Positions 6,438 to 27,814 are shown, counted from the first letter of the stretch. The stretch is DNA of 63,492 nt from an uncultured Clostridia bacterium (GCA_937893125.1 CALBHW010000025.1:1-63492), one strand, 5' to 3'. Notes: generated by a model not told the origin, from the letters alone. Translations and numbers: made by a program.

Positions 6438-6511
6438 AGGGGAATAGTTCAAGGGTAGAGCTATGGTCTCCAAAACCATCGATGAGGGTTCGAATCCTTC
6501 TTCCCCTGCCA
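6438..6511 (+). tRNA. tRNA-Trp (anticodon CCA)
   Basis: Hand-folded cloverleaf: acceptor AGGGGAA/TTCCCCT, anticodon stem ATGGT/ACCAT, loop CTCCAAA, T-arm GAGGG-TTCGAAT-CCTTC, encoded CCA. 74 nt. Confidence 0.9.
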
Positions 6512-6545
6512 AACAAAAACAAAGACCGCAAGGTCTTTTTTTGTT
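6491..6545 (+). repeat. Direct repeat copy 1 (tRNA-Trp T-loop to 3' end, plus terminator)
   Basis: CGAATCCTTCTTCCCCTGCCAAACAAAAACAAAGACCGCAAGGTCTTTTTTTGTT. It recurs at 6701-6754 with one substitution and one 1-nt indel. Confidence 0.9.
6521..6543 (+). terminator. Terminator after tRNA-Trp
   Basis: AAAGACC-gcaa-GGTCTTT followed by a T-run. Confidence 0.7.
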
Positions 6546-6700
6546 AGCAAGGGGTTAGAAGGGCTCGAACGGAGCGTTAAGAAAATATGATTTTTATCAT
6601 ATTTTTAGCGAGTGGCGTGATAGCCTTGTAATAAAATTCTTTACTTTTGCATAATTTAATGACGAGAAAAAACTATTTGTTTTTTATGCTTATGGCGGAG

Positions 6701-6754
6701 CGAATCCTTCTTCCCCTGCCAAGCAAAACAAAGACCGCAAGGTCTTTTTTTGTT
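6701..6754 (+). repeat. Direct repeat copy 2 (orphan tRNA-Trp 3' fragment plus terminator copy; att-like scar)
   Basis: CGAATCCTTCTTCCCCTGCCAAGCAAAACAAAGACCGCAAGGTCTTTTTTTGTT. There is no 5' half of a tRNA upstream of it. Confidence 0.85.
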
Positions 6755-6767
6755 TGCATGAGAAAAA

Positions 6768-6816
6768 GGCGACCGCTTGTGTTGCCAGTCAATTCTGACG
6801 CCAACTCACGACCGCC
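6768..6816 (+). repeat. Left copy of an inverted 46-49-bp repeat (partner at 12327-12372)
   Basis: GGCGACCGC...ACGCCAACTCACGACCGCC. The reverse complement of 12327-12372 reads GGCGACCGC...ACGCCAACTCGCGACCGCC. Matches are 9/9 at one end and 18/19 at the other; the middle has diverged. Confidence 0.7.
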
Positions 6817-6870
6817 TTTTTAGTACAATAAGTTCTATTCACTACTTAATCAATTAAGTTACCTAATTGT

Positions 6871-7047
6871 ACTACCCCCTCGGTCTCTACGAGACCACTC
6901 CCCCTTACGCGTCGAGCCAAGCCCTTAAACTCAGATTGCTTCCGCAATCATTCGAACAGCGGGCTGTCTCTCCTTTTCCCCAAAAATTTCGTAAAGCACA
7001 CGCTTTACTGCTATTTTCGGGGACCCCACTTCCGACAAAGGGGTAGT
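6871..7047 (-). repeat. GC-rich structured repeat element, copy A (candidate ncRNA or MITE-like element)
   Basis: 177 nt, alignable with 8339-8516. Identical blocks include ACTCCCCCTTACGCGTCGAGCCA and CTCTCCTTTTCCCCAAAAATTTCGTAAAGC. Several hairpins carry compensatory changes. An A.C mismatch on the plus strand (6982/7018) becomes G.U on the minus strand. Confidence 0.65.
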
Positions 7048-7084
7048 GAAATCGGCTTACCTAGAATAAGCATAAATTGTAAAC

Positions 7085-8272
7085 TCACTTTGCTAAATCT
7101 TTTGGGAGACGCTGGAAGGCGCGCTGGGCGGATTCGAGTTTTGATTTCTCTTGTGTGTAATATTCCGCTATGGCGGTTGGGTCGTCGCCACGTTTAAAGC
7201 GCTCTTGACATTCCCTATTAACTTCAAGTAGTCGGCGGTTATTTCTTAGGAGCATTTCCTTTCTCAAACAATACTTTTGCACACTATTTGGTGCCGTGCC
7301 GTCCGCCCAAAGAAGTTTGATGTATTCTAGCCTATCGTCTGGGTCGGCTTGTGCCAAAATTTTGTATTTTGAACGCTTATCCATATAAAGTCCCACATTG
7401 TTTTTTACGCAAATTGGGTCGGTTATTTTGCGCTTTTCTTCAATGCAATCAAGTTGCAATTTCCTAATTTGAAGTTCCCTTGCAACATCATAAAAAATGG
7501 TTAGTCCAAGTAAAATCATCGGCACAAGAAGTCCAAGCGCCACCGCTGGTGACGAAACCGTCTCCGACAAACTAGCGATTGAATTTGCGAACCCCGAATC
7601 CGTATGAATGCCTAAAACAACATTTTCAGACACCATATAAGCGTCGTCTTGAAGATTGGACGACCCATAAGTTTTAAACCACCTTACCCCGTCGTCGTCT
7701 TGATACACATCGCGCACTTTATGGAATACAAGCATAGAATTTGCATTCGACGCTTGCTTAATTTCACTATTCTTAAACCCCAAAAAAGTCGAAATAGAGC
7801 GGTCATAAGAAGTTGCGCCTATGTCGTCGTCTTTTACGCGCACGCAACTATTAACATCAAACTTGGTATAACTCCCACCCCAAACATAAAAGGCAATTTT
7901 GTCGCCCCGTTTAATGGTCTTTGTGTTAACACTTCGAATAACAACACTGTCACCAACATTAAAACCGTCATTTGACATACTCGCTGATACAAGCGTAAAT
8001 TTGGAATATCCCATAAAAGACGCTGGCACATTTTGCACGCGACTGTTTAGCACCATTACACCTAAAAGTAGCGTAAGCGCAACCAAAATCCCGCTCAATG
8101 CACACACAACAACTTGTGCAACCTTACCCGCAACACTCTTTGGCTCTTTCAAAAAGTTTTCATTAACTTTTCTCTTCTTCTCATACTTTTTGAGCAAATC
8201 ACTCGCCTTGCGCTCCATTGCCTTTTGAACGGATTTGTCTTCAACTATGTTTACATTTACCATGTCGGACAT
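7085..8272 (-). CDS. SipW-like (archaeal/ER-type, S26B) signal peptidase I with long cytoplasmic N- and C-terminal extensions
   Basis: VSASMSN...GDSVVI...IKRGDKIAFY...VFHKV...WFKTYGSSNLQDD parallels B. subtilis SipW (SGSMEP...GDVITF...THRIV...KTKGDNN..D). A second TM (AVALGLLVPMILLGLTIFY) sits where SipW has one. The AAGGAG RBS favours the ATG at 8272 over the ORF-track start at 8278. Confidence 0.65.
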   Translation of the reverse strand: MSDMVNVNIVEDKSVQKAMERKASDLLKKYEKKRKVNENFLKEPKSVAGKVAQVVVCALSGILVALTLLLGVMVLNSRVQNVPASFMGYSKFTLVSASMSNDGFNVGDSVVIRSVNTKTIKRGDKIAFYVWGGSYTKFDVNSCVRVKDDDIGATSYDRSISTFLGFKNSEIKQASNANSMLVFHKVRDVYQDDDGVRWFKTYGSSNLQDDAYMVSENVVLGIHTDSGFANSIASLSETVSSPAVALGLLVPMILLGLTIFYDVARELQIRKLQLDCIEEKRKITDPICVKNNVGLYMDKRSKYKILAQADPDDRLEYIKLLWADGTAPNSVQKYCLRKEMLLRNNRRLLEVNRECQERFKRGDDPTAIAEYYTQEKSKLESAQRAFQRLPKDLAK

Positions 8273-8338
8273 AATCATACTCCTTTTAATAAGATTGGTT
8301 TGCTTATTTGATTATAGTCAAATAGTGATAATTGTTGG

Positions 8339-8516
8339 GCTACCCTCTCCCCCCTTCGGGGTACTCCCCCTTACGCGTCGAGCCACGCCCGCTTGTTCGG
8401 GTTGCTATCGCAACCACTCAACTTATGGGCGGGCTCTCCTTTTCCCCAAAAATTTCGTAAAGCGTATGCTTTACTGCTATTTTTGGGGACCCCTTTCTTG
8501 GTGCCAAGGGGGTAGT
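8339..8516 (-). repeat. GC-rich structured repeat element, copy B
   Basis: 178 nt with the same architecture as copy A. It lies 8 nt after the stop of the 222-aa gene and about 60 nt before the signal peptidase start. Confidence 0.65.
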
Positions 8517-8523
8517 AAATTTA

Positions 8524-9192
8524 TTACTCCACAACTGTCGCACCGCCGATGGTGTCGGAGTTGGCAAGTGACCAGTTAAGGCTCGCGTCACCTAAACTTT
8601 CGTAAACTGCCCCAGTGTACAATTTGTCAATTTCTACAAGAATATAAAAATATGCACTATTCCCAGCATATACAAGTTGCGATAGCGTAGACTCTGTCGT
8701 CGACCCTTGCGTTTTAATCGTGCTTGCTCCGTCAATCATTGTCGCAAACGACAACTCAGTCCCCGACGCATAATACCATACATTTACATTTGACTTGTTC
8801 GACGCGTCAGCAACCGTAACAAGCAAATCGTGTCCCCCGCTTGGATTATTATTAGTAAATTTGTATGTAAACAAAGCATAAGAATTACTTTTACTTAGCG
8901 CGACCGATTGTGGCGTTTGCAAAGTCGCAGTCGTACTCGATTGCTCCAATCCAAATTTTACACTCGTTGTCTTGCCGTCCGCGCCAACTAAATTTGTCTT
9001 TTCTATATTTGCTTCCGTTTGATATACGGCACTCGCTGTCGCATTAACATGTACCGCGTTGTACCTAATAACTAAGTTGCTCGACACACCTTGCGTCGAC
9101 GCAGATAAAACTATCACAACTGTCATCACTGACACCGCGACTACACATACTAGCGTAAATATTGATAATACAATTTTTCTTGTTGATGACAT
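8524..9192 (-). CDS. Small secreted or membrane-anchored protein of unknown function (leader related to that of the DGR target)
   Basis: 222 aa with an N-terminal hydrophobic segment followed by SASTQG...VIRYNA. The target protein has WGATQM...EITYSA at the same place. The remainder is Ser/Thr/Asn-rich and looks beta-rich. Confidence 0.7.
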   Translation of the reverse strand: MSSTRKIVLSIFTLVCVVAVSVMTVVIVLSASTQGVSSNLVIRYNAVHVNATASAVYQTEANIEKTNLVGADGKTTSVKFGLEQSSTTATLQTPQSVALSKSNSYALFTYKFTNNNPSGGHDLLVTVADASNKSNVNVWYYASGTELSFATMIDGASTIKTQGSTTESTLSQLVYAGNSAYFYILVEIDKLYTGAVYESLGDASLNWSLANSDTIGGATVVE

Positions 9193-9458
9193 AATTTACA
9201 TCCTTTTGTGTGGAATTTTTTTTATTTCAACTTTCTATCTTATTCTTACTCCCCCTTGTAAGGGGGAGTAAAAACTGAAATTAGTTTCTACTAGGGTTCC
9301 CTTCACCGTTTTTTGTATATCCCTTTATTTTTAAAAATTTTCGACCCCCTTAGGGGGGGTATATTTTTAAAGTGGTCGTCACTTATGTTTAAGTGGGGCT
9401 TGGGATTTTTTCGTTTATTGCAGGCGTGGTAGCCTGCACGAAAAAAAGCCTTCGCCCC

Positions 9459-9480
9459 CTGGGGGATCTTAATCCCCCAG
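9459..9480 (-). other. GC hairpin immediately 3' of the VR (DGR retrohoming-type hairpin/cruciform)
   Basis: The minus strand reads CTGGGGGAT-TAAG-ATCCCCCAG: a 9-bp stem and 4-nt loop, about 10 nt past the end of TR/VR homology and 5 nt past the stop codon. Confidence 0.65.
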
Positions 9481-9484
9481 CCCC

Positions 9485-11863
9485 CTAGCTAGAGATAAGG
9501 GAAGGACGAAAGCCGATACCAACAAGCGTATGCGCTAGAGCATTGTCAACACATATACAGAACAGCCCAGCATCGTAACCGCTATTAACAGTACCACCGC
9601 GCAGGACACCATAAATGTAATCGGTTGACGTATTAACCCAATAGTAATCGCATCGTCCAGTTGTAGCGCTTCCGTCAGAACCAGCACTTGTAGGCACGCC
9701 TACAAGTTGCTCCAAAGCGCCTTCAGAGACGATGTTAGAAGTCCCGTTGTAACGAGACTTATATCCCCCTTCCGTTGGAAGGGTGTAAGACAATTCGACA
9801 TAATTTCTATCTTTTAAATCCGCTTTTTTGTTTGCATATTCGCCCGAATAGGAGTTAAAAAGCCAATTTGAGCCGTTAAAATCGTCAAAATTGACGAACA
9901 TATGCATACTTGTTCCGCCATTTGAGACGACGGCTTGACCAAACGACCATTCCCACACATTGCCCCAAGGGTTGCAAATTCCTAGGCAAAACACGCTTGA
10001 ATATCTATCCGTCCCCACAAAGCCGTCAGAAAGAACGCGTCTAGTGACGCTTGAGCCACTGGAAGCGATATTTTTGACCATAAATTGTGAAGAATAGAGT
10101 CCCGTTGGGTCGGAGCCGTTGCTGAGAGAGTTTGTGTTCGTGTAATTATAGGAAAAGCCGTAAGACAAGGTAGAATTTGAATAAGTTGTGACTGTTCCGC
10201 CTGGTTTTTCGGATTCATAATATCTTGCGTAATCTGTTCTATCGGCGTATTGGCTATTTGCGTCATAGTTCCAAGTACAGCCATAGCCGACCATTTCTTG
10301 AGAGTTATTGTTTGCATATTTTACAAGGTACAAAAGGTCGTAAGCGTACATTTTCCAATTTTCGCCTTGGACGCCCTTAACCTTTTTATATGACGACGCA
10401 AGGCTACTAGAATTCCACCTATTAGTCAAAGTTGTCATATAAGATTGCATAGTTTGTTGGTTAGTTGAGTTGCCTTTTACGCCCGCGGTGTCGGAATATC
10501 CCGACCAATTGTTAAGCGCGTAATTTATGCTACCACTTGTCAAAGGTCCCGCTTCGAAAGTTGCGATATAAGAGCGTGGGACATCTGATGTAGTTTTGTC
10601 TGGGTTAAAGAGGGTTGCTTCAAAAGTTGCAAGGTAAAACTCGTCAATTTTTACGCTACCCGTGAAGAATTTGTCTGACAAACTTTGCCATTGTCTATCC
10701 CCGACCACCCAACGGCGAAGGTACATAGTAGGATAATATGTGTAGCAGTCGACAGCGGAAAAGGTCGTTTGTGCAGTCAATTTTCTACCGCTTGCGAGTG
10801 TTCTTCCCGCTGGCAAGGTTACGCTTCTTCCAAACCATTCAAAAGGATATGTCGGGTCGGACAACTTCCCTATTATTTCGCCCGTTGCTAAGTCGACATT
10901 AACAATGTCAATGTCTTTATAGACGACCGCGTCAAGGTAGTCGTCTTGTCCATAAGTGATATTTGGGTTGCCCAAACTATTTTTATTTTGCAAGAAGCCC
11001 GCGATGTTGCTTAGACTTGTTTCGTTAACCTTTGTTGCAGTTGCGTTTAGGGTTGCGTTGTAACCATATTTTGTCCAACTAGGGTCAGTTTGGTCAATGT
11101 CTTGATAAATACTTAAAATGTCGTTTGAAGTGTATTGAATATCTGCCATAAAGGAGACTGAGACGACGAAAGAAGTCGACTCTACTTGCCAAACGGACGA
11201 ATCATATGTTGAGTTTAATTTAATTGAGACTTTTATAACATAAGTGTCGTTTTGGTCGATGCTTGAATTGCTTTGGAAAGCAGTCAAGGTGCTATTTGAC
11301 ACATAGCCTTTAACTGCTGAGACATAGGAAGTTGCGCTGTAATTTGGTTTCATAGCAAGCAAGTCGCTCATACCTTCTGTGTAGTTATAATAATATTGGT
11401 CGGTTATGAAGTCTAGATACGATACATTTGGCGAGATTGTAACATTAGGCAAAATATATCTATCTCCGATATTTTTGATGAAGACCATAAGTTCAATTGA
11501 TTTACTTGTATCTTCGAGCGGGAAAGTCCCCAAATCGCAAGTAATGCCCGAGAGTTCGTTCTCTTTCCCCGACACGGTGTAGACATTGTCATTTGACGAC
11601 CCGCTCCCACCCGTCATTGTCATCCACGAAGCGTTACCCGCAGTCGAGCCAGAATTAAGGGAGTATGTTCCCCAAATTTTGGCACCGATTTCGGTCGCAG
11701 AATATGTAATTTCGCCTTGCATTCTAAGATACATTTGGGTTGCGCCCCAAATCTCAGCGGTTGCAATAAAACCGATGACAAATGCTAATATAAAAAATAA
11801 TACTGATTTTGCTCTTCTCACCCTTGTTTCCACAGACTTTTTCCCTAACCTTTTAAAGTACAA
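9485..11863 (-). CDS. DGR variable (target) protein: N-terminal leader/TM plus C-terminal FGE-sulfatase/C-type-lectin-fold domain carrying the VR
   Basis: 792 aa with a TTG start (GTG alternatives 27-39 nt downstream). The GNVWEW motif and the terminal ...GGTVNSGYDAGLFCICVDNALAHTLVGIGFRPSLISS match the CLec-fold VR pattern. The last 120 nt are the VR. Confidence 0.9.
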   Translation of the reverse strand: MYFKRLGKKSVETRVRRAKSVLFFILAFVIGFIATAEIWGATQMYLRMQGEITYSATEIGAKIWGTYSLNSGSTAGNASWMTMTGGSGSSNDNVYTVSGKENELSGITCDLGTFPLEDTSKSIELMVFIKNIGDRYILPNVTISPNVSYLDFITDQYYYNYTEGMSDLLAMKPNYSATSYVSAVKGYVSNSTLTAFQSNSSIDQNDTYVIKVSIKLNSTYDSSVWQVESTSFVVSVSFMADIQYTSNDILSIYQDIDQTDPSWTKYGYNATLNATATKVNETSLSNIAGFLQNKNSLGNPNITYGQDDYLDAVVYKDIDIVNVDLATGEIIGKLSDPTYPFEWFGRSVTLPAGRTLASGRKLTAQTTFSAVDCYTYYPTMYLRRWVVGDRQWQSLSDKFFTGSVKIDEFYLATFEATLFNPDKTTSDVPRSYIATFEAGPLTSGSINYALNNWSGYSDTAGVKGNSTNQQTMQSYMTTLTNRWNSSSLASSYKKVKGVQGENWKMYAYDLLYLVKYANNNSQEMVGYGCTWNYDANSQYADRTDYARYYESEKPGGTVTTYSNSTLSYGFSYNYTNTNSLSNGSDPTGLYSSQFMVKNIASSGSSVTRRVLSDGFVGTDRYSSVFCLGICNPWGNVWEWSFGQAVVSNGGTSMHMFVNFDDFNGSNWLFNSYSGEYANKKADLKDRNYVELSYTLPTEGGYKSRYNGTSNIVSEGALEQLVGVPTSAGSDGSATTGRCDYYWVNTSTDYIYGVLRGGTVNSGYDAGLFCICVDNALAHTLVGIGFRPSLISS
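9491..9610 (-). repeat. DGR variable repeat (VR)
   Basis: Aligns without gaps to 13588-13707. There are 23 mismatches, all at positions where TR has A on the coding (minus) strand: 20 in the core and 3 at the 3' edge. Confidence 0.92.
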
Positions 11864-12026
11864 TTATACTTACTACACTATATTTTACCTATTTGTCACC
11901 CCCGTGTCAATAAATTATATCCCAAATATACATAATACCCATTGTCAATTTAATCAAGTGAAATTGAGTAGGGGTAATGATTGGGGCTTGGTTGTATATA
12001 AATATCAAGTAATACTATCGGTTGGA

Positions 12027-12070
12027 CTACCCTATCCCCCCTTCGGGGTACTTCCCCTTACAAGGGGAAG
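12027..12070 (-). repeat. Truncated copy C of the structured repeat element
   Basis: ACTACCCTATCCCCCCTTCGGGGTACTTCCCCTTAC matches the first ~35 nt of copy B (33/35). It then joins directly to AAGGGGAAGCAAATTTATTA, which is related to the 3' end and flank of B, so the ~130-nt core is missing. Confidence 0.7.
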
Positions 12071-12326
12071 CAAATTTATTATATTGTTTAAGGCTCCCTT
12101 ATAAGGGGCAATAATCATACAACAAGTTACTTTCTTACTTCCCCTTACAAGGGGAAGCCTACTCCAATTGGCTTCTTACCCACTCTCCATTGTAAGGGGA
12201 AGCCTACTTAAACTTTTTTTTATTTACCCCCCTTATGACAAAGGGGGGTGGCGCGGTTAGCGTCGGAGGGATAGTAAAACTAAAGAACATTACTAATTGG
12301 GTGGTGAAATGAGATGGTTGAACTGG

Positions 12327-12372
12327 GGCGGTCGCGAGTTGGCGTTCGAAGAACAGTCTACTCGCGGTCGCC
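12327..12372 (-). repeat. Right copy of the inverted 46-49-bp repeat; itself a 12-bp hairpin
   Basis: GGCGGTCGCGAG-N22-CTCGCGGTCGCC, 11 nt after the RT stop codon. See 6768-6816. Confidence 0.7.
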
Positions 12373-12383
12373 TACAAGATACT

Positions 12384-13490
12384 CTATTCGACTTGCTGAA
12401 GAGCAATGCGCAAGGCTTCTTTCTCCGCTTTATTACGCAATTTATCGTGACGACTTATCGTAAAACGGCACTGCCCTACATTCACATATGGTTGCAAGTA
12501 TTTTAGATAAAATCTATTTCCGCTTGTTACTTTAATTCGCGCACTATAACTCATTATTGCGCTTGAATCGCGCGCGGTGAGATAATCCTTCTTATAAATC
12601 TTTCTAATGCGTCTAACGGCGCGCAAAAAGGTTTTTGACCGCATAGTAATATAGTTGCGATAAAATTTATATCCCAAAAAGTCGAGCGGGCGTCCACTTC
12701 CCTTTTTATCCGCGATTTTAAACACTTGCCAATTAGGTTTAATTGTCAAATGCTCATTATTTAGATATTTCTCAATTTCTTTTTGCCACTTACCTAATTT
12801 TCTCTTATTTGGTGAAAAGAAAACCATATCGTCCATATATCTAATATAGTGCGGAATTTTAAGTTGTTCTTTGACATAATGGTCGAAGTCTTGCAAGTAA
12901 AAATTGGCAAACCACTGACTAGTGTAGTTGCCGATTGGGACGCCCGACGGGACGGAACGGACGATAATTTTTATTAAATTTAATGTTTTTTGGTCTTTTA
13001 TAATGGTTTCAAACTTTTTAAGTAGCAAATCTTGGTCAATGCTTGGATAAAATTTGCGAACATCGCATATAAGGCAATATTTTGTGTTTCGCGGGTCGTT
13101 TTTTAACCATTTTTGAACCGTTTTAATACCATATGACGCGCCCCGATTGTCGACAGACGCGCAACAATAGTCATACATCCCGCGCATTAAAATAGGCTTA
13201 ATAACGAGCATTAGCGCCCATTGGACAATTTGGTCGGGGTAAAATTTGGGAATAAAAATTTCACGGATTTTGCCCGTGCATTTATCGTTTATAATTTTTG
13301 AAGAATATTTCATCGGCTTATACTTTTCGCGGAACAAAAGGTCGTGTAAAAGGGCGAGTTTTTGCTCTATATCACCCATAAAACGCTTTACATTCACTCT
13401 TTTACGCTTTCCCTTTGACGCGCAACGCGACGCCACTCTAAGGGTCGATAAGTCGATAATTTCATCATATAAATCTTTTACTCTTTTCAT
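12384..13490 (-). CDS. DGR reverse transcriptase
   Basis: 368 aa. Motif 4 PIGNYTSQWFANFYL (the [ILV]GxxxSQ of DGR RTs, in place of the QGxxxSP of group II/retron RTs). Motif 5 YIRYMDDMVFF. No maturase/endonuclease domains. AAGGGA RBS. The TR lies 98 nt upstream. Confidence 0.93.
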   Translation of the reverse strand: MKRVKDLYDEIIDLSTLRVASRCASKGKRKRVNVKRFMGDIEQKLALLHDLLFREKYKPMKYSSKIINDKCTGKIREIFIPKFYPDQIVQWALMLVIKPILMRGMYDYCCASVDNRGASYGIKTVQKWLKNDPRNTKYCLICDVRKFYPSIDQDLLLKKFETIIKDQKTLNLIKIIVRSVPSGVPIGNYTSQWFANFYLQDFDHYVKEQLKIPHYIRYMDDMVFFSPNKRKLGKWQKEIEKYLNNEHLTIKPNWQVFKIADKKGSGRPLDFLGYKFYRNYITMRSKTFLRAVRRIRKIYKKDYLTARDSSAIMSYSARIKVTSGNRFYLKYLQPYVNVGQCRFTISRHDKLRNKAEKEALRIALQQVE

Positions 13491-13587
13491 TGTGTCCCTT
13501 ATAATGTCTATCGGCGTTTCGGTCTCCTACTAAGCCAATTCTCTTGCGACAAATTTTTAGCGTATGCTACGGATAAAAGGTTGCTAA

Positions 13588-13707
13588 ATTTATAAGGGAA
13601 GGACGAAAGCCGATATTAACATTTGTATTCGTTAGATTATTGTTAACATTTATATAGAACAGCCCAGCATTGTTATTGTTATTTACATTACCACCGCGCA
13701 GGACACC
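13588..13707 (-). repeat. DGR template repeat (TR)
   Basis: The coding-sense translation GVLRGGNVNNNNNAGLFYINVNNNLTNTNVNIGFRPSLI is AAY-codon rich. It is not part of any ORF. It is the only other copy of the VR sequence that I could find by eye. Confidence 0.92.
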
Positions 13708-13853
13708 CCACATAAAACGAAGAAAATGGCTCGGAGAGCAACCAAATACCCATTTATATTATACCCCACACTTCCCTTTGTCCCCTAATAAATTTCTTGT
13801 CTACTTTTGTCTATTTTCGTCGAAGATTGACAAATTAAAAGGAAAAATAAAAA

Positions 13854-13902
13854 GGGCGGTCATATGCAAGCGTCCGAATGGACAGTTTGCGTATGGTCGC
13901 CC
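13854..13902 (-). terminator. Rho-independent terminator of rny
   Basis: Long hairpin GGGCGACCATACGCAA...TTGCATATGACCGCCC on the minus strand followed by a U-run, 19 nt after the rny stop. Confidence 0.75.
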
Positions 13903-13920
13903 GTAAAAATATTTGTTAAA

Positions 13921-15474
13921 TTATTTTGCTACATCAGTTGCGCGAGTTTCTCTAATGACATTAACTTTAATTTGACCAGGATATTGAAGTTCATTTTCAA
14001 TTTTTCTTGCAATATCTTTTGCAAGGAAAACGATGCTTTTATCGTCAACTTCTTCAGGCTTAACCATAATTCTGATTTCTCTACCCGCTTGAATAGCATA
14101 AGATTTTTCAACGCCCTTAAAACTATTTGCGATATTTTCAAGATTTTCAAGTCTCTTAATGTATGCGTCAAGGAGTTCTCTTCTAGCACCAGGTCTACTA
14201 CTTGAAATTGCGTCCGCCGTTTGAACGATAATTGCTTCAAGCGACCTAAACTCGACATCGCCGTGGTGCGCTTCAATACAGTGGATGACTTCTGGCGATT
14301 CCTTGTACTTTTTCGCCAAATCAACACCAATTGAAACGTGAGTACCTTCTTGTTCATGGTCAAGAGCCTTACCTATATCGTGCAAAAGCCCCGCGCGTTT
14401 TGCTACACGCACATTTGCGCCAAGTTCGCTAGCGAGAAGCCCCGCCAAATGGCACACTTCAAGGCTGTGTTTAAGCACATTTTGCCCATAACTTGTCCTA
14501 AATTTAAGTCTACCTAGAATCTTAACAAGTTCAGGGTGCATATTCATAATTCCCGACTCATAAACAGCGTTTTCACCCGCTTCTTTAATAACCGCATCGA
14601 CATCTCGTTGCGCTTTTTCGACAATTTCTTCAATGCGTGCTGGATGAATACGCCCATCCATAATAAGTTTTTCAAGCGCTACACGCGCGATTTCCCTTCT
14701 ATATGGGTCAAATCCCGACAAAACAACCGCTTCTGGCGTGTCGTCAATTATAAGGTCAACGCCCGTCGCATTTTCAATTGCACGAATATTTCGGCCTTCT
14801 CGACCAATAATTCTTCCCTTTAATTCGTCATTTGGGAGCGGAACAACAGTCACTGTAATTTCGCTTGTAATATTTGTTGCGCATTTTTGGACAGCCAAAG
14901 TCACAATCTCACGCGCTTTTTTCTCCGCCGTGTCAACTGCTTCTTCTTCCATTTGCCTTATCGTCTGCGCGCAGTCCATTTTTGCTTCGTCTACATAACG
15001 GTCGATAAGTTGTTTTTTTGCTTCCTCTTTTGTTATTCCAGACACTTTTTCAAGCGCTTGGGTTATTTTTTCGCTTTCTTTGTCTACTTCCTTTTTTGCT
15101 TCTTCAAGTTCCGTTTCTCTTTGCTTTAAATTATCAATCATAACGTCCAAGGATTCCGCTTTTTTATCCAAGGTTTCTTCCTTGCGTTGCAAAGATTCTT
15201 CTTTCATTGTAAGCCTGTTTTCTGATTTCGAAATCTCGTTGTAACGCTCGGCTATCTCTGCGTCACATTTTTCTTTGAGCGAATGGATTTCTTCTTTCGC
15301 TTCCAAAATTGCTTCTTTTTTTGCTGTTTTAGCCTCAGCATAGGCATTTTCTAAGATTTTAGTCGCATTGTTTCTTGATTGTGATGCTTTTTTTGATATT
15401 AAAAAATATGTTGCGCCTGTTCCAGCTCCAATACTTAAAACACAAGCGACTAAAAACCAAACTATTGGTATCAT
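13921..15474 (-). CDS. rny: Ribonuclease Y
   Basis: 517 aa with an N-terminal TM, a coiled coil, a KH domain ([13 protein letters not shown]) and an HD domain (LLHDIGKA). Confidence 0.93.
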
Positions 15475-15768
15475 TTAGTCACTGTTCCTTTTATAAAAAA
15501 TTTATCAAAAATTCAATAACGAAATATCAAATGATTTGACTGATTATAGTTTAGCAATATCTAAAAATTATGTCAAACAAATTTATTATAGCAAAAAAAG
15601 CGAATTGCTAAAATACAAATTAACAACTCGCTTTAAATTTATTTTTTTCTATAAAAAATTATCAATTTTTGTAAATTTTTGTTCAAAAATGGTAAAAAAC
15701 ACTTTAATTTGGCTCAAAAAACCTTTTTTACCCCAAATAAGATTTTTAAAAGGGCTTATATTCCTAAA

Positions 15769-25264: not shown

Positions 25265-27814
25265 ATGAAAAAAATTTTAGCAATCTTTTCTTTTGTTTTA
25301 GTTTTTATACTAGTCACTACGGGATGTTCTAACGACAATAGTGCTCAAGTTAGAATGTCAAGTCAAAAATTATCAAGTGGACTTGACCAAATTATTAGTT
25401 TAACTAACAAACTAGACAACATAGATACAAATAAAATGGATTTAAATTCAATTTTGTCCAATGAAGGCTCGATTGTAAGTTCAACCACGCAAACATCCGC
25501 CTTCAATTTTGACCAAAGCACTCCAAAAAATGCACTGGATGAGCGCCCATTCCTTTTTGCACCACTTTATGATGAAAATAGTCAAGACAGAACACCAATA
25601 GATTTTTCATATATGCAAAAATTTAATGAATGTGCTAATATTGCACCAAATTCACCTTCAATGCAATTCAATGTACCTTCTCCACAAAAATTTAGACAAC
25701 AATGTATAAATTTTAACGCAAAACGTGCCATGAAAATGAATAATGACATAAAGCCATGCTCAGTGTCGACATATAGTCAAAATGAATATTCTTCACTTGC
25801 GACCTTGTCTAATGATTGTAAAAATTTAAATCAAGAATTTGTAACTGCAAAAGCAAATGTTTTGAAAAGTTGTAGCGAGGCGAAAGCAAATTTAAAAAAA
25901 TTAAAAGAAAGTAAAAAAAGCATTCCAGAAAATGACCTTCGCACGCTCACAAGTTACTATGAAGTCGTAAAGGATTGTATTAACAATGTGAAATCATGCA
26001 AAAGTTGTTCAAGCAACCTTAAAAATATAAATCGCAAAAAGAACAATCTTTCAACCAACTCTGGCACTATCAATTCCGAATTGCTACAAGTATATAATAA
26101 ACTTGACGCAAATTGTTGCACACTAAACAACACAATATATTGTGTAAATGAAATCAATTGTTTCGCTAAAAAGTTAAACGGAGAAAAATGCTCAACAAAC
26201 ATGTCTGTTAACCCTTACATTAGAAACAATAGGTATCTTTCAAGTCTAAATAGTGCAAAAAATAAAGAATTTTATAATTCACAGTCAAAAAATCAAACAA
26301 ATCAACCTTACAATAATCAATTAAAAGCAACAGATCAAAACAAATCAAATATAACAAATTCACCGATAAATAATCAAACAAACACACAAAATCAATCTCA
26401 AAATGATATAAAAAGGTCACTAGAACCTAATTTTGATACAAAATCAGTTACAAATAACATAACGCCTACCAATAATTACACAAAAAGCAATGAAACTACA
26501 AAATACAAAGAACAAAATGGACAAAATTATGTAAATTCTCCAAAAAATAATACTATTTACAATCAAACAGACACTTTAAATCGACCTAATACAAATAATA
26601 ACAGCGCAAAAAACGAATTGATCTTTACTCAAAAAGACTACTCTAATAATGTAACAACAAATAAATTACAAAAAAATGATGAAAACGAGAAAAAAGTGAC
26701 TGAAAATAAGCAAAATGAGTTAGCTACTAACTCAGACAGAAATAATTTCATTAAAAATGCCCAAAAAACAGATGTTAATGAGCAAAATAAAGCCATTTTT
26801 AATACAAATCGATATAAAAATGACGAAAAAACAACAAAAAATGACAATATTTCATCAAAAAGCACTGGTAGTTATAACAATATAACTAATAATATTCAAA
26901 AACAAAAAAATGAAAAAATAGCCAATAATTTTTACTATTCTTCAAATAACAATTCTTTAAACAATGCAAATTCGAATACAAATCCATACACAAAGGATAT
27001 AAAGGATAAAGACAAGTATTTATCCAACCTAAGAAACTACAACTCCAATAATGAAAATGAAAAAACAAATTATAAAAGAAATAACAACACTAATGCTTAC
27101 GACTCTACCCTACACAATCAAACAAACGACCTAAGTAGAAATCAAAAAATCAACTCAACCAATTTCAATAATAATGTCGCAAAAGGCTCGACATTTAATC
27201 AATCTAGCAGTAAATATGTAGAAACAAATAAAAATCAAAATACGACAAATAATTCTTCAAATTTAAACCAAATTTCAAGCACAACTTTCAACACAACTTA
27301 CACTCCTAACATGACTCCTACCCCTACTTACAATAATGGAGTTAACAACAATTCAAATTATGGTTATACAACTTACCCTAATTTGGATCGAACACATCCC
27401 GTCGAAATAGAACGACAAAACGAAGATAAATATGCAACAAATCAAGACGACACAAACAATGATCCAAATACACTAGAAAAGAACAAGGACTATACATCAA
27501 AAATAGAGCCAAACAAAACACAACAAAATGATGTAAAACCAAGTTCATTAAGCCAGTATTCAAACGACAATAAAGCCTTCACTTATTATAAAAACAACAG
27601 TGAGAACAATATTAACAATAATCATTATCAAACGCCACAATATCAATATGAAAACGCTAAAAATGATAATGTAACAAGACAAAATCAAAATAATTCAGGC
27701 ACGCAGTATCACAATGCCCGAAATTTTGCAAGGAATTATGACCCAACAAAAAATTACAGGTCAAGTACAAATCTTTTAGTCAAGCCACAATCTGTCCGTG
27801 CTAATGTCTCATAA
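25265..27814 (+). CDS. Lipoprotein with a Cys-rich N-terminal region and a very long Asn/Thr/Gln/Lys-rich low-complexity region
   Basis: 849 aa. Signal peptide plus lipobox (LVTTG|C). GGGAG RBS. Composition is seen directly in the translation. Confidence 0.7.
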   Translation: MKKILAIFSFVLVFILVTTGCSNDNSAQVRMSSQKLSSGLDQIISLTNKLDNIDTNKMDLNSILSNEGSIVSSTTQTSAFNFDQSTPKNALDERPFLFAPLYDENSQDRTPIDFSYMQKFNECANIAPNSPSMQFNVPSPQKFRQQCINFNAKRAMKMNNDIKPCSVSTYSQNEYSSLATLSNDCKNLNQEFVTAKANVLKSCSEAKANLKKLKESKKSIPENDLRTLTSYYEVVKDCINNVKSCKSCSSNLKNINRKKNNLSTNSGTINSELLQVYNKLDANCCTLNNTIYCVNEINCFAKKLNGEKCSTNMSVNPYIRNNRYLSSLNSAKNKEFYNSQSKNQTNQPYNNQLKATDQNKSNITNSPINNQTNTQNQSQNDIKRSLEPNFDTKSVTNNITPTNNYTKSNETTKYKEQNGQNYVNSPKNNTIYNQTDTLNRPNTNNNSAKNELIFTQKDYSNNVTTNKLQKNDENEKKVTENKQNELATNSDRNNFIKNAQKTDVNEQNKAIFNTNRYKNDEKTTKNDNISSKSTGSYNNITNNIQKQKNEKIANNFYYSSNNNSLNNANSNTNPYTKDIKDKDKYLSNLRNYNSNNENEKTNYKRNNNTNAYDSTLHNQTNDLSRNQKINSTNFNNNVAKGSTFNQSSSKYVETNKNQNTTNNSSNLNQISSTTFNTTYTPNMTPTPTYNNGVNNNSNYGYTTYPNLDRTHPVEIERQNEDKYATNQDDTNNDPNTLEKNKDYTSKIEPNKTQQNDVKPSSLSQYSNDNKAFTYYKNNSENNINNNHYQTPQYQYENAKNDNVTRQNQNNSGTQYHNARNFARNYDPTKNYRSSTNLLVKPQSVRANVS

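Follow-up and report, generated by a model that had tools for sequence, protein, structure and literature searches.

The stretch of DNA analysed here, referred to as the window throughout, comprises 63,492 nucleotides from an uncultured Clostridia bacterium (GCA_937893125.1, CALBHW010000025.1:1-63492) and carries on its minus strand a diversity-generating retroelement (DGR) whose target gene is followed by two further co-oriented genes. In the order of transcription, the locus consists of a template repeat (TR), an RT-18 RNA motif, the gene of the reverse transcriptase (RT), the target gene with the variable repeat (VR), an open reading frame (ORF) of 222 aa, whose product is termed p222 in the following, and an ORF of 397 aa (Table 1). 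An earlier examination of the sequence alone (the sequence-only reading) had given the same order of the RT and the three genes behind it and had interpreted the locus as a DGR target embedded in a module of a SipW-type signal peptidase and a small secreted protein, possibly a diversified fibre or adhesin system. That overall observation was verified, and the interpretation is supported by the results described below. On balance, we slightly favour the reading that the locus is an export and display module for a surface adhesin or filament, which is served by a dedicated peptidase and has acquired a DGR.

The diversity-generating retroelement and its target

An active DGR is evident from the adenine-directed rewriting of the last ~39 codons of the target gene. 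Of the 116 positions of TR and VR, 20 are mismatched, all of them at TR adenines. The RT is matched by the Pfam model RVT_1 (1.7e-14) and by the reverse transcriptase family phrog_1423 (7e-106), and its nearest relatives on viral contigs share 44-47% identity. The TR is placed 100 nt upstream of the RT, and the RT-18 motif, positioned exactly between the TR and the RT start, probably represents the structured spacer of the DGR RNA. Downstream of the VR and the stop codon, a 9-bp GC hairpin may function as DGR target-recognition hairpin or as terminator. No candidate ORF of at least 25 aa for an Avd or HRDC accessory protein was found between RT and target, and the TR directly abuts the RNase Y gene. 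With the exception of this accessory gene, the element has the defining properties of a DGR with respect to the TR/VR pair, the RT and the ongoing diversification.

Further evidence came from a second strain of the same species, represented by a contig from another sample (L031), in which the gene order is the same, the TR is identical and the target is 97% identical. The VR of this strain reads GVLRGGFVYYYYSAGLFYIYVSTYLTYTYVIIGFRP and that of the window GVLRGGTVNSGYDAGLFCICVDNALAHTLVGIGFRP, and the encoded residues differ at adenine-templated codons. In L031, 18 of 20 mismatches between TR and VR are at A. As TR and target are conserved between the strains and the VR is not, the DGR has diversified the protein since the two strains split. 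The L031 sequence was also noted for its uneven similarity to the window: between RNase Y and the peptidase gene, both included (6920-15646), the two are 97.7% identical, whereas the adjacent ThiI, NifS and PheT genes share just 82-86% identity, a contrast that suggests recent recombination or transfer of the segment carrying the DGR and the module. The RT of L031 was called as two ORFs (160 and 226 aa), reflecting either a frameshift or an assembly error.

Table 1. Positions of the features at the locus, in order of transcription; coordinates refer to the window.
Feature	Coordinates	Strand	Basis or remark
Template repeat (TR)	13592..13707	-	83% identity to VR
Rfam RT-18 RNA motif	13496..13569	-	cmscan 49.2 bits, gathering score 41.3
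DGR reverse transcriptase, 368 aa	12384..13490	-	Pfam RVT_1, phrog_1423
Non-coding spacer between RT and target, 520 nt, with GC-rich palindromes	11864..12383	-
Putative sigma-70-like, near-consensus promoter before target gene	11910..11882	-	sequence
DGR target, 792 aa	9485..11863	-	hhalign to F0; phrog_5302
Variable repeat (VR)	9495..9610	-	encodes GVLRGG-x-AGLF-x-IGFRPSL
9-bp GC hairpin with 4-nt loop, CTGGGGGAT-TAAG-ATCCCCCAG, followed by T-run	9459..9480	-	sequence
222-aa F0-family protein (p222)	8524..9192	-	F0 membership
Copy of 131-nt repeat, 3' of 222-aa gene	8363..8493	-	within 245-nt spacer
Terminator-like hairpin in 131-nt repeat, 3' of 222-aa gene	8474..8457	-
Predicted S26B (SipW/Sec11-type) signal peptidase homologue, 397 aa	7085..8278	-	HMM, fold, conservation

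The target protein can be divided into three parts: a leader and post-leader module (residues 1-147) of the type described below as F0, a middle region, and a C-terminal domain of the ligand-binding type (residues ~366-790). Pfam and PDB sequences yielded no match for the target; residues 366-790 are matched by the family phrog_5302, annotated as 'tail protein' (8e-16). The VR region displays the ...RGG...AG.F...GFR... scaffold that is usual for DGR variable regions. Judged from this scaffold (RGG...AGLF...GFRP) and the PHROG match, the C-terminal domain is predicted to be lectin-like, consistent with a fold of the C-type-lectin/formylglycine-generating enzyme (FGE) kind. Full-length homologues of the target, 785-807 aa in length and 41-52% identical, are encoded in related operons.

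The match to a phage tail family raised the question of whether the locus is a prophage remnant, with the target as receptor-binding or tail protein of a phage and unrelated cargo in the genes beside it. The affiliation of the RT with a phage RT family and its relatives on viral contigs would fit such an origin, as would the GC content of the module (0.40-0.43 compared to ~0.35 in the flanks) and a nearby tRNA-Trp gene with duplicated 3' end. However, no phage structural, lysis or integrase genes are present between the genes of RNase Y (13921-15474) and LexA, the former of which, together with tRNA-Trp/LexA on the other side, bounds the module. In addition, the target has no tblastn match in 50,697 phage genomes, its N-terminus belongs to a cellular protein family, and orthologues occupy the same operon position in relatives that lack the RT. 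A prophage origin of the whole locus was rejected on the absence of phage genes and of the target from phage genomes, and we regard this explanation as highly improbable.

The intergenic regions contain several repeats. Two copies of a locus-specific 131-nt repeat (81% identity) follow the peptidase gene (6897-7027) and the 222-aa gene, a 57-nt repeat (82% identity) precedes the peptidase and the target genes (8318-8374 and 12005-12061), and the palindrome CTTCCCCTTGTAAGGGGAAG occurs three times (12049, 12136 and 9247); further copies of these three elements, for which a role as attenuators or REP-like elements may be considered, were not found elsewhere in the window. The terminator-like hairpin after p222 and the putative promoter before the target would, speculatively, fit a higher expression of the substrates than of the enzyme. 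Beyond the module, the tRNA-Trp gene (CCA) is located at 6438-6508 (+), and its 3' end and terminator (6482-6549) are duplicated at 6692-6758, an arrangement that resembles the scar of an attachment site. In a conspecific strain (L001), 72 nt take the place of 570 nt of the window (6513-7081). Further away, at 25265-27814, a predicted lipoprotein of 849 aa is encoded whose leader ends in ...VTTGC and which contains a very long low-complexity region rich in Asn, Thr and Gln, giving rise to an AT-skew of 0.32 and a dip in GC content to 0.29.

The signal peptidase, the F0 family and their conserved linkage

By sequence and structural modelling, the 397-aa protein (or 395 aa with the third codon as start, which is the version of the database protein P0001) is a signal peptidase of the endoplasmic reticulum (ER)/archaeal type (MEROPS S26B) with an intact Ser-His-Asp set. 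The motifs VSASMSN, GDSVVI, KRGDKIAFY, VFHKV and KTYGSSNLQDD, which had been read as paralleling SipW, are all found in the ORF, and so are the ~50-aa N-terminal part before the first transmembrane (TM) helix and the ~120-aa part after the second. The protein is predicted to consist of a cytoplasmic N-terminus (residues 1-48), TM1, an extracytoplasmic catalytic domain (83-228, nt 7595-8032), TM2 and a conserved cytoplasmic helical domain (269-397, nt 7088-7474). Pfam gave no match, and among the NCBIfam hidden Markov models (HMMs) the protein was recognized by sigpep_I_arch (TIGR02228; E 3.3e-10) and by the Bacillus SipW model (8.3e-10).

An AlphaFold2 model and conservation counts were based on 86 homologues. 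The model (predicted local distance difference test, pLDDT, 90.6) comprises an N-terminal helix, TM1, a beta-rich extracytoplasmic domain, TM2 and a C-terminal helical domain. The top Foldseek match in the PDB was human SEC11A (7p2p_A; probability 0.99, template modelling score 0.54 on the matched structure, at a weak E of 0.04), followed by LexA/UmuD of the same clan. A profile restricted to the catalytic domain similarly had SEC11C/A as top matches among PDB sequences (E 0.03-0.08), aligning SxSM with SGSMEP, vFHHi with IVHRV and ktyGSSNxxdD with TKGDNNAVDD; the other peptidase profiles and those of F0 and the target found nothing significant in this set. S100, M101, D126, H186, G205 and D212 are invariant in all 86 homologues. 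Thus, the catalytic Ser and His demanded by the earlier assignment are both present, accompanied by the invariant D212, which aligns with the last Asp of the GDNNxxDD box, and the alignment to the IVHRV box indicates that the general base is His (H186), not Lys.

With a column identity of 0.71, compared to 0.62 in the catalytic domain, the C-terminal domain in the cytoplasm (LELDCVEEKRKITDPICVKN...) exceeds all other parts of the protein in conservation. This C-terminal domain contains two invariant cysteines (C290 and C357) and an EEKRKITD motif and matches no family. Many homologues carry additional long Lys-rich tails and so reach 500-740 aa. At least 156 database proteins, none of them named, belong to the well-conserved peptidase family, all of which originate from metagenome-assembled genomes (MAGs) of uncultured Clostridia, Christensenellales and Ca. 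Onthoplasma.

p222 is a candidate small structural subunit, for which a K-rich N-terminus, a hydrophobic segment of ~25 aa, a VLSAS-TQ motif and an all-beta domain are predicted. The protein has no match in Pfam, NCBIfam, PHROGs or PDB sequences, and the profile of its family, here termed F0, corresponds to no family in Pfam, NCBIfam or PHROGs. While a word-indexed homologue search retrieved just 2 proteins with p222 and 8 with the F0 profile, an exhaustive HMMER search yielded 1066 clusters at E<=1e-3, 695 of them at E<=1e-10. The N-terminal consensus of the family reads M.SKKK, ~25 hydrophobic residues, V[LFW]AA and ..Q.V.S.[IV].[VI].Y.A...V.A.VSA.Y, the strand after the leader having Y in 96% and A in 72% of the sequences. 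This consensus has neither the G/A-F...E5 site of type IV pilin-type leaders nor a conserved Cys, and both a leader of this type and a lipobox were therefore rejected.

By sequence, the target begins with the same leader and first beta-strands as p222, and both proteins belong to the F0 family. Both are in register with the F0 leader consensus (157 sequences), the target with the segment EIWGATQMYLRMQGEITYSATEIGAKIWGTY. Alignment by hhalign of 35 small F0 members with seven target-like proteins resulted in a probability of 92.5% and an E of 5e-7 over ~131 columns, covering target residues 3-147, and in tblastn the target also matched a small F0 protein in another locus (L003; 1.5e-5). The sequence-only reading had based this relationship on the similarity of the two post-leader segments, which as a single pair does not hold (BLASTP of p222 against the target N-terminus, E = 2) but is significant at the profile level. 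Apart from the small members, the top 155 F0 representatives include 37 long proteins in which an F0-type N-terminus is followed by BspA-type leucine-rich repeats (LRR), DUF6273 or Hint domains.

To follow the genomic context, one genome per species was scanned, which gave 30 loci with a peptidase gene, and contig look-ups added more. HMMs were applied to all ORFs, and the linkage was counted in the 28 loci with at least 900 nt of upstream sequence. Across Christensenellales-like Clostridia, the peptidase is almost always encoded directly behind F0 genes: in 27 of the 28 loci, one to five F0 genes are located immediately upstream on the same strand. The complete set of a large target-like protein, an F0 protein and the peptidase, proposed earlier as one module, recurs in six loci (L004, L006, L007 and L032-L034). 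In two other operons (L023 and L028), DUF285/LRR repeats are found instead in the large F0-led proteins. A TM protein of ~180 aa (F2/F3), which the F0 HMM recognizes in part, is often encoded directly adjacent to the peptidase gene, and the surroundings beyond F0 genes and peptidase vary between lineages. As a side observation, the gene directly downstream of the peptidase gene in L023 (11739-13214) encodes a product which, from its N-terminal sequence only, we take to resemble the sporulation ATPase SpoIVA; this linkage is not conserved in other lineages.

The 397-aa protein might also be the general signal peptidase of the lineage, in which case its position beside genes for abundant secreted proteins would be without meaning. 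The peptidase family is widespread in the clade, and a search of the 63-kb window, which is a small part of the genome, revealed no LepB motif of the bacterial type. However, the genomic context changes from lineage to lineage except for the upstream F0 genes, and the conserved additional cytoplasmic domains are atypical for housekeeping signal peptidases. In addition, one MAG encodes two divergent peptidase paralogues (in L001 and L009; 44% identity), which argues for dedicated rather than housekeeping enzymes. A general role is thus very unlikely. Taken together, the linkage, the recurrence of large F0-led proteins and the paralogues support a dedicated peptidase that serves a modular family of small subunits and large binding proteins.

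In contrast to this module, the DGR is not conserved. No RT or TR was detected near the target-like genes in 13 loci (L004, L006, L007, L032-L034 and L035-L041), for which 4-10 kb of flanking sequence was covered where available. An RT was found only in this species (window and L031), and the DGR is an add-on rather than a conserved part of the module. Rumen-type metagenome contigs instead contain three to four target-like paralogues of ~800 aa in tandem, with no RT nearby (L035 7115-14814 and L036 9602-14767). These paralogues are 58-67% identical overall, whereas the DNA equivalent to the VR is only 43-50% identical and the most divergent part, for which reason they were rejected as multiple VRs of a single TR. 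As this stretch is the most divergent also where the RT is missing, the ligand-binding stretch is the fastest-evolving part with or without a DGR.

Possible mechanism and alternative explanations

Based on these results, the following mechanism may be proposed for the favoured export and display module. Both F0-led proteins would enter the membrane by the Sec pathway via their long hydrophobic leader, and the private peptidase would then cut at the end of this leader, in the conserved V-[L/F/W]-[A/S/G]-A motif. Such cleavage of the neighbouring gene products would fit the 27/28 linkage and the small residues of this motif. It would free the conserved N-terminal strand ([IV]x[VI]xYxA), by which the small protein could form a stalk or scaffold and the large protein could be tied on, as in TasA/TapA or BsaA; polymerization via an N-terminal donor strand is proposed by analogy to these systems. 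The outcome would be a p222 scaffold that displays the hypervariable lectin-like C-terminal head of the target as binding tip. In relatives, the passengers of the same module (lectin-like, LRR or DUF285) are not diversified and in some cases form tandem paralogues, and in this species the variation comes instead from the DGR.

Several findings weigh against this proposal. With respect to the peptidase, the TIGR02228 score of 40 bits is below the curated cutoff of 51.85, and in 76 of 86 homologues Ser (Ser206) takes the place of the first Asp in the GDNN box. As the Bacillus SipW equivalog model also scored low (38.5 bits at a cutoff of 190) but the catalytic residues and the fold agree with S26B, the protein rather represents a divergent S26B subfamily than an equivalog. 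With respect to the candidate substrates, neither p222 and the target nor any of the 35 scanned F0 members had TasA/camelysin or SipW-cognate signal models among their listed matches. The AlphaFold2 model of p222, built from a shallow alignment of nine sequences, is all-beta but poor (pLDDT 56.5), and Foldseek searches with this poor model returned generic beta-sandwiches, carbohydrate-binding modules and adhesins at template modelling scores <0.3, and no TasA. The F0 leaders are unusually long and could be uncleaved anchors. Finally, the third small TM protein (F2/F3) of many related operons is missing from the window, and the DGR is joined to the module only in this species.

The locus might also be explained without a polymer. 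The F0 leader would then be an export or anchor tag and the peptidase would mature or shed monomeric surface or secreted binding proteins, so that the target would be a free or membrane-tethered variable lectin and p222 an unrelated small protein, secreted or at the cell surface, of the same export class. The evidence on the peptidase and the shared leader fits this explanation equally well, long hydrophobic leaders resemble signal anchors, and neither sequence nor Foldseek searches yielded a TasA-like signal. The high conservation of the cytoplasmic C-terminal domain of the peptidase would suit regulated shedding. However, the post-leader strand is kept across paralogues and unrelated passengers, and small F0 paralogues commonly occur in tandem arrays of one to five. 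Export alone hardly explains these two findings, which parallel the heteropolymer operons of TasA/BsaA (PMC11580942). Export of monomers is thus a possible explanation, to which we give less weight than to the favoured display module.

A more far-reaching version of the favoured reading can be put forward only tentatively and as a whole. F0 proteins would be the subunits of an undescribed class of Gram-positive surface filaments in Christensenellales-like gut and rumen Clostridia, which are assembled by an S26B peptidase and bear interchangeable tip adhesins (lectin-like, BspA-LRR or DUF285), the tip being continuously re-specified by a DGR in at least one species. The highly conserved cytoplasmic domain of this private peptidase would couple processing or assembly to an intracellular partner.

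Comparison with known systems and significance

The locus shares a number of properties with tapA-sipW-tasA of B. subtilis, where the segment just after the leader of TasA/TapA acts as donor strand (PMC9674648). In both cases, a dedicated signal peptidase of the ER/archaeal type is encoded along with its exported substrates, which at our locus are candidates. These proteins have the N-terminal sequence just after the leader in common, and a major small subunit, here likewise a candidate, is accompanied by an accessory protein. Unlike TasA and camelysin, to which the F0 proteins have no sequence similarity, the system described here includes DGR diversification. Its peptidase, twice as large as SipW, additionally has conserved cytoplasmic domains at both termini and a 50-aa insert, and GDNN is replaced by GSSN. 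The sipW-bsaA-bsaB-bsaC operon of C. perfringens, to which related BsaA/TasA-family operons of Clostridia may be added, encodes several paralogous small matrix or filament subunits, suggesting heteropolymers, and BsaC as a larger protein with a von Willebrand factor A (VWA) binding domain (PMC11580942). It thus resembles the locus as a clostridial operon of a SipW-type peptidase, small paralogues and a larger binding-domain protein, but here the peptidase gene comes last, the subunit family is different and the large protein itself has a subunit-type N-terminus. The peptidase further shares the predicted fold, the Ser, His and Asp boxes and a catalytic domain positioned outside the membrane after an N-terminal TM helix with SEC11A/C and archaeal signal peptidase I. 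It differs from these by an extra insert, a second TM helix and the ~120-aa helical cytoplasmic domain; this C-terminal domain has no counterpart in SipW or Sec11.

As in Bordetella phage Mtd, Treponema TvpA and phage tail-fibre targets, the VR of the target is located at the extreme C-terminus, and the scaffold, the adenine-specific mutagenesis and the GC hairpin after the VR are those of classical DGR targets. Unlike in these, the N-terminal two-fifths constitute a cellular export or assembly module shared with the operon neighbours, and the TR is located upstream and the target downstream of the RT. A further parallel is provided by the type V pili of Bacteroides, in which a DGR rewrites the C-type-lectin-fold head of a tip adhesin whose N-terminal part matches stalk subunits encoded alongside in the same operon (PMC11601372). 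Here as there, the variable gene is in an operon with structural subunits, which in our case are candidates. The locus differs by its Gram-positive lineage, an unrelated subunit family, the lack of an Avd gene and an assembly that is only proposed, and processing would involve an S26B signal peptidase instead of the lipoprotein export and arginine protease of type V pili. The sequence-only reading had not recognized the arrangement as a described one. Full-text searches of the literature identified no paper in which DGRs are connected with peptidases of the SipW type; from type V pili, however, processed appendages with a hypervariable tip are already known (PMC11601372).

The conserved and so far unannotated operon probably encodes a surface adhesin or filament system of a kind that is new for Gram-positive bacteria. 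To our knowledge, most cellular DGR targets are without known cellular context, whereas the target described here can be assigned to a conserved export module of three parts, in which the relation between enzyme and substrate is open to testing. The analysis also exposes two sizeable unannotated families, the F0 leader/beta-domain proteins and a subfamily of SipW/Sec11-like peptidases that is distinguished by novel cytoplasmic domains. Both families are found in Christensenellales, gut bacteria that attract interest with regard to host health and whose cell surface has hardly been studied. If the filament reading is correct, this would be the first DGR-diversified appendage outside the type V pili of Bacteroidota, and Gram-positive and Bacteroidota gut bacteria would have evolved the diversification of appendage tips by DGRs independently of each other. 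Tandem paralogues and the DGR would then represent alternative routes to tip diversity within one protein family.

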